A stretch of DNA of 52,807 nucleotides. It comes from Escherichia phage vB_EcoBD_211. The stretch lies in the sequence record PV893055.1, one strand, 5' to 3'. The notes below the pieces were generated by a model, which saw only the letters and a program-made list of their open reading frames with translations, had not been told where the DNA came from and searched no databases. Position numbers and translations under genes: made by a program. Below, piece after piece: positions 1,777-2,272 of the stretch (position 1 is its first letter; each line of letters starts with the position of its first letter).

Positions 1777-2020
1777 TTATTCAGCCTCGTATACAATTCA
1801 AAGTTTTGGTAATCAGCAACATTGATAAATATTGTAACACATCTTTTTTATAGTGTAAACGTCTACAGATTTATTTATCAATCCGGTTTTTTATTATTTT
1901 TCGCCAGCGTAAATTTTTTTCATCCGGTTCTGATATTAATAAAGAGATAAACCGGATCATACATATAGACGCCTCTAAGTAGCTGTTTTTATTACTTCTA
2001 ATATAATTAATAATATATAA

Positions 2021-2038
2021 TAATAATAATAATAATAA
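2021..2038. repeat. (TAA)6 microsatellite
   Basis: Six perfect TAA units read directly in the sequence. Confidence 0.8.
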
Positions 2039-2220
2039 AATAAATATATACCCCCTTTATCCGGTACTTGGATCCCCTTATTACCCCCCTTTTTCTTTAT
2101 AAAGGGCTCCATATATTTACTAATTCATGTAAAAAGAAAAGAGTATATAAAACAGTAGCTTAAGTGCACTTAATTCGAAAAACACGGTTTATTTATTCCA
2201 TAACTAGTCTACCGGAGCAA

Positions 2221-2268
2221 AAAGAGTATATAAAATAAGGGCTTACGTATTTTACTACATAAGCCCTT
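2221..2268 (-). terminator. rho-independent terminator candidate downstream of the primase-helicase gene
   Basis: Stem AAGGGCTTA (2237..2245) pairs with TAAGCCCTT (2260..2268), followed on the minus strand by a U-rich tract just after the stop at 2273..2275. Confidence 0.5.
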
Positions 2269-2272
2269 GATT

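Follow-up and report, generated by a model that had tools for sequence, protein, structure and literature searches.

The complete genome of Escherichia phage vB_EcoBD_211 (record PV893055.1; 52,807 bp, analyzed at full length and called the window below) contains an AT-rich, non-coding gap of 496 bp (positions 1777-2272) between the genes for a primase-helicase and a Holliday-junction resolvase. On balance, we favor the view that this gap is a probable replication origin, set between a terminator and a promoter. The part that would act as the origin is most likely the stretch of about 370 bp between these two signals, with a core at approximately 1975-2090. The phage is a Rosemountvirus, that is, a myovirus of Salmonella and E. 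coli (BP63/yarpen group), and over bases 1300-2900 its genome is 96-97% identical to those of phages renfri, yarpen and rivia, with matches in 59 phage records. The literature that we found describes no origin for Rosemountvirus or Loughboroughvirus. Here, we report the observed features of the locus, namely composition, repeat enrichment, conservation, synteny and the predicted domain make-up of the adjacent protein, and weigh the proposed origin against other explanations.

An easily melted block flanked by short repeats

An earlier note on this DNA described AT-rich non-coding sequence on the 3' side of the primase-helicase open reading frame (ORF). This description holds: the ORF ends at 2273 and the next start codon lies at 1776, both on the minus strand, and the gap between them has an A+T content of 71.6%, compared with 54.0% for the genome. 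Given that all frames of 1860-2236 contain stop codons (7-16 per frame) and that 1-nt indels occur among close relatives, we consider the gap to be non-coding. A tRNA scan returned none, and the sole match in an Rfam scan of 1200-2800, at E-values up to 1, was to a long non-coding RNA and is meaningless.

The most conspicuous feature of the gap is a 52-bp run of pure A/T (1999-2050), the longest in the genome (the runner-up has 20 bp) and, judging by duplex energy, a candidate DNA-unwinding element. It includes the microsatellite that the earlier note had counted as six TAA units and that is in fact (TAA)7, at 2018-2038. The least stable 60 bp of the genome (1990-2049) have a duplex energy of -50.7 kcal/mol, approximately 6.7 standard deviations (sd) away from the genome mean of -82.1 kcal/mol (sd 4.7), and the least stable 100-bp and 200-bp stretches of the genome fall within the gap as well. 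The locus thus has an AT-rich, easily melted center of the kind found in the origins of Staphylococcus aureus pathogenicity islands (SaPIs).

Short repeats surround this block. In a hexamer census of 1860-2236, TCCGGT (ACCGGA on the other strand) was the sole hexamer not composed of A/T only that was enriched at the 1e-8 level: 5 of its 15 genome copies fall in this interval, where 0.07 are expected (about 70-fold; Poisson probability 1.5e-8). The copies, at 1882 (+), 1923 (+), 1951 (-), 2060 (+) and 2211 (-), lie on either side of the A/T run and in both orientations. Those at 1882, 1923 and 1951 form, together with T-tracts (at 1887, 1897 and 1914, upstream of the resolvase promoter), a cluster at 1881-1957 of candidate initiator-binding sites. 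The same cluster contains the inverted repeat ATCCGGTT (1922-1929) and AACCGGAT (1950-1957) that had been noted earlier and that we confirm; an extra copy of ATCCGGTT is present at 1881-1888, and ATCCGGT occurs at 2059. The cluster also encloses a degenerate GC palindrome, CGCCAGCG (1902-1909). A conserved hairpin of the form CCGGC...GCCGG around this palindrome was considered and rejected, its pairing being disrupted, with no compensatory change, in SE13, S144 and the window itself.

On the other side of the A/T run lies a C-rich flank (2051-2104, plus strand) with the TCCGGT copy at 2060-2065, the palindrome CTTTATAAAG (2095-2104) and three C-tracts (2051-2055, 2074-2077 and 2084-2089), which the earlier note had rightly listed and all of which are on this one side. 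Immediately to the left of the run, alignment of relatives reveals a conserved box, CTAAGTAGCTGTTTTTATTACTTC (1975-1999, plus strand), so that the A/T run is flanked by the conserved TAAGTAGCTGTTTT box and the C-tracts. The pattern TAAG(T/C)nnnTG(T/A)TTT is kept across the relatives aligned; the box CCTAAGTAGTTGTTTTT of L036, a related locus with 27% primase identity, was read in the raw gap sequence, outside that alignment.

Folded as DNA, 1860-2125 reached -20.9 kcal/mol (z -1.4), a value equaled or bettered by 20 of 200 shuffles and, accordingly, not significant. No DnaA box (TTATNCACA) with up to one mismatch is present in 1777-2272; the rest of the genome has 51 such sites.

Conservation of the layout behind the primase gene

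Compared with Loughboroughvirus, the gap shows identities of 0.68-0.80, against 0.41-0.49 at the fourfold-degenerate sites of the adjacent primase gene and 0.54-0.57 in shuffled controls. Over the block 1861-1935, identities to seven relatives, Erwinia phage SOI901 among them, amount to 0.71-0.83, whereas the fourfold-degenerate sites of these seven are only 0.33-0.57 identical (0.33 in SOI901); the IMG/VR contig L020, which ends inside the block, was left out of this comparison. By these values, the gap is under purifying selection.

A gap of 470-665 bp directly after the primase stop codon is found in relatives with primases 78, 77, 43, 42, 38 and 27% identical to that of the window. Synonymous sites are saturated at such divergence, yet the layout behind the primase gene is retained, with a shared order of conserved box, A/T run with microsatellite, C- or GC-rich repeats and terminator. 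Where the gap adjoins the resolvase gene, the complete order, read in the orientation of the window, is the promoter, then CAATCCGnCTTTTTT, the CGCCGGCG palindrome and TTTTC(A/T)TCCGGTTC, then the box, the A/T run, the C- or GC-rich repeat block, a variable stretch and the terminator. Most relatives retain the element CGCCGGCG. Where the window has its 52-bp run, nine relatives have an A/T stretch of 28-53 bp whose microsatellites are lineage-specific, either (TAA)n, (GATA)4, (TAC)5 or ATATATTT repeats. From the start of the run to the primase stop codon there are 222 bp here and 205-407 bp overall, with 8 of the 10 sequences in the range 205-299 bp. As in SaPI-type origins, the candidate cis element thus lies directly downstream of the initiator ORF, the gap beginning at the stop codon (2273).

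S144, SE4 and L035 have C-tract repeats at the corresponding site, where L036 has a GC-rich block. L035 and L036 are the most distant relatives and retain mainly the core: box, A/T run and C-tracts in L035, and box, A/T run and GC-rich block in L036, where the A/T block is flanked by inverted ACTTATAT repeats of its own. Because L036 keeps the element even though its resolvase gene is 2 kb away, the element travels with the primase gene. The least stable 60 bp of each related locus lie in this gap, including those of L023 (24% identity, 62% G+C), which has its own inverted repeats there; one distant relative, L022, has no such gap. The number of TCCGGT copies varies: S144 and SE4 have two, PK3, L015, L016 and SOI901 have one, and ZCSE2, L035 and L036 have none.

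The left edge of the conserved block, at position 1863, is the site of an insertion polymorphism in about one-third of the relatives (birk, emiel, zoltan, ciri, SPLA2/11, LPSEYT and others). The insert is a gene of about 500 bp, annotated as anti-repressor Ant or as a homing endonuclease, with its own extended -10 promoter.

A search of plasmids and E. coli genomes for satellites or decoys with the core element yielded only whole phage genomes filed as plasmids. Two E. coli "plasmids" from complete-genome assemblies, NZ_CP067310.1 (53,474 bp) and NZ_JBVNBN010000003.1 (52,771 bp), are 94-98% identical to the core of the gap; being as long as the phage genomes, both records appear to be whole Rosemountvirus genomes carried with, or contaminating, bacterial cultures.

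The primase-helicase

The gene at 2273-4807 (minus strand) encodes a protein of 844 amino acids, the presumed initiator. Its predicted domains are an N-terminal archaeo-eukaryotic primase-polymerase similar to that of NrS-1, an MCM-like AAA+ ATPase (DUF3987) and a C-terminal winged helix at about 757-842. The structural model was obtained with AlphaFold2 (AF2) from an alignment of 53 sequences; an alignment of 5 sequences gave a predicted local distance difference test score (pLDDT) of 38.7 and was unusable. In this model, a winged helix accompanies a ring ATPase, the combination that characterizes SaPI-type initiators.

A HMMER scan collected 583 homologues. Searches with the single sequence matched only PHROG 'DNA primase' families and DUF3987 and had no match in PDB; the family profile alone reached PriRep5 and NrS-1. 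Built from 53 sequences, this profile matches, over its 290 N-terminal positions, the NrS-1 primase-polymerase (N300; E about 3e-53) and the PDB entry 7OLA (E 2.9e-63), which is SaPI5 PriRep5 according to the depositing paper. Of the 53 family members, 34 have PF22763 and 36 have DUF3987; the protein of the window itself scores 23.9 bits against DUF3987, just under the cut-off of 27 bits. The primase-polymerase motif residues D110, D112, S139 and H146 and the Walker A lysine K438 are invariant in the 53 homologues. The protein therefore combines in one chain the features of an NrS-1-like enzyme, namely the DxD and sGxGxH motifs, a helix-bundle domain and a P-loop ATPase. Together with the model, these features point to a primase-helicase of the initiator type.

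The ends of the gap and the 16-mer pair

The primase gene is followed by an intrinsic terminator, a hairpin with a 13-bp stem and a U-tail at 2237-2268 (minus strand). As RNA, the hairpin folds with -22.1 kcal/mol (z -6.5) on the minus strand and with -19.4 kcal/mol (z -3.6) on the plus strand. The minus-strand tail after the hairpin (2268-2237) is AUUUUAUAUACUCUUUUU, and the whole lies directly 3' of the primase ORF, which gives the GC-containing hairpin and U-rich tail at a gene's 3' end that are typical of Rho-independent terminators. The stem, AAGGGCTTA/TAAGCCCTT, is kept in both genera. Because the hairpin folds on the plus strand too, the terminator is possibly bidirectional and may stop transcription from both sides. 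The integration host factor (IHF) consensus WATCAANNNNTTR has three exact matches in the genome, of which one, AATCAAGGGCTTA at 2260-2272 (minus strand), is the sole one in the gap; as this match shares bases with both the terminator stem and the primase stop codon, it is probably due to chance.

At the other end, a sigma-70-type promoter, TTTACA-17 nt-TACAAT with a TG upstream (1831-1859, minus strand; 10 of 12 consensus matches), precedes the resolvase start codon by about 55 nt. It is kept in both genera and in Erwinia phage SOI901 and is annotated as a promoter in BP63 and S144.

The earlier note had based its own proposal of an origin partly on a 16-mer, AAAAGAGTATATAAAA, which it took for an iteron or, alternatively, for a phage-specific promoter element. 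The two exact copies (2137-2152 and 2220-2235) are indeed present and are the only ones in the window; with up to three mismatches, there are 6 matches in the window where 0.61 are expected, and 0 of 100 shuffles reach 6. Inspection of the copies supports neither proposed role. Copy 2 directly follows the terminator hairpin and, in the minus-strand reading TTTTATATACTCTTTT, is its U-rich tail; at this site S144, PK3 and JEP7 have a different T-rich tail, e.g. TTTTTTAAGCTC. Copy 1, extended by 13 bases to a 29-nt repeat (D1; 2137-2165) with 83% identity, looks like an incomplete duplicate of the terminator, comprising the tail and one arm of the stem. Since the copies differ in S144, PK3 and JEP7 (GAGTTTATAAAAC vs. 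GAGCTTAAAAAAT and similar pairs), they are not kept alike. A second terminator at copy 1 was rejected: the fold (-4.7 kcal/mol, z +0.9) includes no hairpin or partner arm. Nor does the 16-mer recur in front of genes, the two exact copies both being in the gap and the four matches with three mismatches being scattered, one of them inside an ORF. A sigma-70 reading was rejected in the same way, neither strand having a -35 element at a usable spacing.

Copy 1 lies in a variable segment (2118-2219; alignment A1) between the 16-mers, which also includes the reversed TCCGGT at 2211-2216. Many Rosemountviruses (JEP7, brunost, CF2, AV127, SPLA9/12 and others) match up to position 2117 of the window (query position 341) and then diverge. 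The identity of this segment to other genera, 0.47-0.73, is the lowest or near-lowest among seven segments, and, judging by the alignments, it is the only one that varies between close relatives. Copy 1 is thus an incomplete copy of the terminator tail and is not conserved, and the pair is a poor candidate for iterons; TCCGGT, to whose copies the inverted repeat belongs, and the C-tracts are the better candidate repeats. What stands of the earlier proposal is the origin beside an initiator-type gene, now with the least stable duplex, the conserved layout and the type of protein as evidence in place of the 16-mer.

A proposed model of initiation

Taking SaPI Rep/PriRep as the template, that is, initiator-helicases acting on an origin directly after their gene, we infer binding, melting and initiation at this site as follows. 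The primase-helicase would bind, via its C-terminal winged helix, to short repeats on either side of the A/T block, the candidates being TCCGGT and possibly the C-tract repeats and the TAAGTAGCTG box. The bound protein would assemble as a ring, melt the 52-bp A/T block and load itself, and DNA synthesis would then be primed by its own primase-polymerase domain. The origin so proposed is of a known kind, and we consider the prediction sound and not surprising.

Two extensions can be envisaged. The winged helix might recognize (A)TCCGGT-type words both at the origin and before the late operon, which would couple origin firing to late transcription; to us this seems distinctly improbable. More unconventionally, the three G-tracts that, on the primase-sense strand, precede the A/T block could stabilize a read-through RNA-DNA hybrid and permit R-loop-assisted priming. 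Priming of this type is known from ColE1 and T4.

Rosemountvirus and Loughboroughvirus have been widely isolated as biocontrol agents against Salmonella and E. coli. If the proposal is correct, they offer an initiator-origin pair in an easily handled enterobacterial phage, in which it can be tested directly.

Alternative explanations

Several observations weigh against an origin in the gap. The TCCGGT copy number is not conserved (0-5 among relatives), which makes these repeats weaker and fewer than classic iterons. The helicase part of the protein has no sequence match to PriRep5, and its structural matches are to MCM. GC and AT skew, computed per gene and per cluster, tracks the coding strand only, with no replication-linked switch, and the three minus-strand genes around the gap have a skew like that of other genes; GC skew is uninformative on the start of replication. 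The searched literature contains no replication data for this phage group. Finally, 49902-50722 is a second large, repeat-bearing non-coding region and hence an alternative site for an origin. In the main rival explanation, the gap serves solely to delimit transcription units and to regulate them. It would consist of the primase terminator, the resolvase promoter and a curved AT-rich upstream region to which a transcription factor, of phage or host origin and active at the late promoter too, would bind, and replication would start elsewhere, for instance at 49.9-50.7 kb. Both the terminator and the promoter are well supported, and the T-tracts at 1887, 1897 and 1914 lie upstream of the latter. 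Moreover, four words, GTCTACAG, TAAGTAGCT, TAGACGCCT and ATCCGGTTTTT, are shared, on the same strand, by the gap and the region 47070-47250 before the small-terminase/late operon and its promoter TTTACT-17-TATAAT (47104-47132). In a comparison of gap 9-mers with the whole genome, most matches were at chance level and only a cluster at 47193-47250 stood out. At 47070-47250, none of the four words varies, whether in Salmonella phages, in Erwinia phage SOI901 or in fHy-Eco03, and their sharing fits a common transcription regulator equally well. The 49.9-50.7 kb gap has repeats of its own and holds the physical genome ends of S144 (PMC7432712). A purely regulatory region does not, however, readily account for the birk-type insertion at 1863, which separates the conserved block from the resolvase gene by about 600 bp and brings, with an Ant-like gene, its own promoter, while everything to the right of 1863 is retained. 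It fares no better with L036, which has the box, A/T block and GC-rich repeats behind the primase gene and the resolvase gene 2 kb further on, or with the 52-bp A/T run and C-tracts, which lie 140-230 bp upstream of the promoter and have no obvious role in transcription. Overall, we consider this explanation unlikely, if deserving of serious attention.

The remaining explanations appear to us considerably less plausible than this. The central part of the gap might be mostly function-free, AT-rich spacer and a recombination or insertion hotspot for mobile genes (Ant, homing endonucleases), its repeats being by-products of slippage and duplication. This would agree with the insertion polymorphism at 1863 (Ant-like or HNH genes in birk, emiel, SPLA and LPSEYT), the replacement of 2118-2219 in many isolates, the lineage-specific microsatellites and the resemblance of 16-mer copy 1 to a partial terminator duplication. 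Nevertheless, 1861-2117 is conserved far above synonymous sites and the order of elements is kept down to 27% protein identity, and we give the idea little credence. Another thought is that the gap holds the physical genome ends or the start of packaging, many public records and contigs starting or ending in it (1886-2272): BP63, swi3, IntR and SD350 break at about 1980, PEA2-3 at about 1894, AEV23 at about 1898, the IMG/VR contig L020 at about 1888, BEC1-17 at about 2223 and SE-SHZ-R at 2272. The breaks are, however, scattered across 390 bp, a scatter compatible with assemblies failing in DNA that is extremely A/T-rich or has microsatellites of variable length; in the relative S144, restriction mapping assigned the ends to the other gap, which separates the early from the nucleotide-metabolism cluster (PMC7432712); and the end of AEV23 is a chimeric join, at the CGCCGGCG site, to foreign DNA, IS5-like and other. 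Genome ends in this gap are therefore very improbable. We think no better of a small non-coding RNA or small protein encoded here. The terminator hairpin folds on the plus strand and is followed there by GATTTTACTT, so that a short plus-strand transcript could end at this point, and there is a 45-aa ORF at 1975-2112 (minus strand). Against the RNA stand the lack of an Rfam match and of a convincing internal promoter, the non-significant fold of 1860-2125 (z -1.4) and likewise of smaller pieces, and the fact that the stretch of the putative plus-strand RNA (2160-2219) is the least conserved part of the gap; against the protein, 1-nt indels among close relatives break all frames.

Genomic context

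The gap belongs to a small minus-strand island, delineated by comparison with the annotated relative yarpen, that consists of a 110-aa ORF, the primase gene, the gap itself and the resolvase gene. On the left, the island is flanked by a plus-strand cluster of early small genes ending at 1348 and, on the right, by a plus-strand cluster of replication and nucleotide-metabolism genes that starts at about 5184. The gene at 1345-1776 (minus strand) codes for a PDDEXK/RusA-like Holliday-junction resolvase (PF24608, E 5.4e-18; PHROG 244). The 110-aa ORF (4782-5114, minus strand) overlaps the start of the primase gene, belongs to PHROG 28429 and has no Pfam match. Most of the relatives examined, as far down as a primase identity of 38%, have this ORF (107-110 aa) upstream of the primase gene, and it is missing in L036 (27%). 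Its position recalls that of the small repressor gene orf56 of plasmid pRN1, which is co-transcribed with orf904.

The region 47070-47250 is flanked by the nucleotide-metabolism cluster and the terminase/late operon, with the late promoter on the minus strand and a ATCCGGAT palindrome at about its +1 position. As a whole it hardly varies among the Salmonella phages, SOI901 and fHy-Eco03. A stem in this region, AAGGCG/CGCCTT, shows one compensatory change in SE4 (AAGGTG/CACCTT). The other large non-coding region, at 49902-50722, comprises 820 bp between the divergent nucleotide-metabolism and early small-gene clusters; it has several promoter-like sites, the repeats AAAAAATTCCGCTGGCTCCT and AAATAATTTCGCCGGCTCCT 176 bp apart, and three copies of GAAACTATATCAATTGCA, and represents an alternative origin or packaging site.

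On the practical side, assemblies of these phages tend to break in the gap between the primase and resolvase genes, and chimeric joins can arise there. In the record of Klebsiella phage AEV23 (OR810919.1; L029 6890-8638 and L030 1-20), the last 1.75 kb or so, joined to the phage at CGCCGGCG, contain an IS5-family transposase, a methyltransferase and a tandem array of CCCGCCAGCGTTGAGGATGAGCACC..., and look like a chimeric assembly or an insertion. Owing to this chimeric join with IS5-like DNA, the end of the record says nothing about the real genome ends; the published 3,915-bp terminal repeat of AEV23 is not visible in the record. GATC is strongly depleted throughout the window, with 22 sites in 52.8 kb (1955 and 2071 among them). 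The DNA of S144 has been reported to resist all enzymes tested except the AT-specific SspI and PacI (PMC7432712).

Comparison with known replication systems

The closest known system, in function as well as in layout, is the SaPI origin with its Rep/PriRep initiator. SaPI Rep and PriRep are self-loading initiator-helicases in which a C-terminal winged helix recognizes iterons, and the origins are located immediately downstream of the rep ORF, with 6-12 short iterons flanking an AT-rich center (PMC9371898). The phage locus resembles them in that the candidate origin is immediately 3' of the primase-helicase ORF and has an AT-rich center with short repeats, here predicted sites, on either side in both orientations. 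The proteins are alike in the N-terminal primase domain, for which the profile match to PriRep5 (7OLA; E 2.9e-63) extends over that domain with no sequence match beyond it, and, according to the predicted model of the phage protein, in the ring ATPase and the C-terminal winged helix. The phage differs from a satellite in being a virulent myovirus of 52.8 kb, and its ATPase resembles, in the model, MCM-type AAA+ proteins, whereas a superfamily 3 (SF3) fold has been reported for SaPI Rep. Furthermore, in place of 6-12 regular iterons, there are five TCCGGT copies with irregular spacing, in numbers that vary among relatives. For NrS-1 itself, no origin has been defined (PMC9371898), so that it gives no model for the DNA element; conversely, since NrS-1-type primase-helicases have no known origin, the candidate described here would offer a model for them and, if confirmed, would be the first such origin outside SaPIs.

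In plasmid pRN1, the origin is contained within 166 bp downstream of the primase-helicase gene orf904 (PMC4234260). Here, too, the candidate cis element follows the primase-helicase gene beside a terminator, the replication protein has three parts (prim-pol, helicase and winged helix, in the phage as predicted) and a small ORF lies upstream (orf56 in pRN1; the 110-aa ORF at 4782-5114 in the phage). The origins themselves are of different design. That of pRN1 is a 100-nt stem-loop; nothing comparable is predicted in the gap (DNA fold z -1.4), where the only strong hairpin is the 32-nt terminator, and which is dominated instead by a pure A/T block, unstructured and flanked by repeats. For the phage we therefore rejected an origin built, as in pRN1, on a large stem-loop or cruciform, and likewise a DnaA-dependent origin, there being no DnaA boxes in the gap.

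Satellite phage P4 has two cis sites, ori and crr, and crr is situated just after the alpha gene. Its alpha protein unites primase, helicase and a C-terminal winged-helix origin-binding domain, by which repeats are recognized, in one polypeptide (summarized in PMC4234260). The phage shares with P4 the predicted combination of these three domains in a single chain and a candidate cis site behind the gene. Unlike in the phage protein, the primase of P4 belongs to the bacterial Toprim type and the helicase to SF3, and a sequence search detected no relation between alpha and the phage protein; P4 iterons (of the TGTTCACC type) are numerous and regular, unlike the repeats of the gap. pRN1 and P4 share the logic of an origin placed behind the primase-helicase gene. 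If our proposal for the phage is correct, the rule derived from SaPIs and pRN1, by which the origin lies directly behind the gene for a self-loading primase-helicase, would extend to a family of virulent myoviruses.

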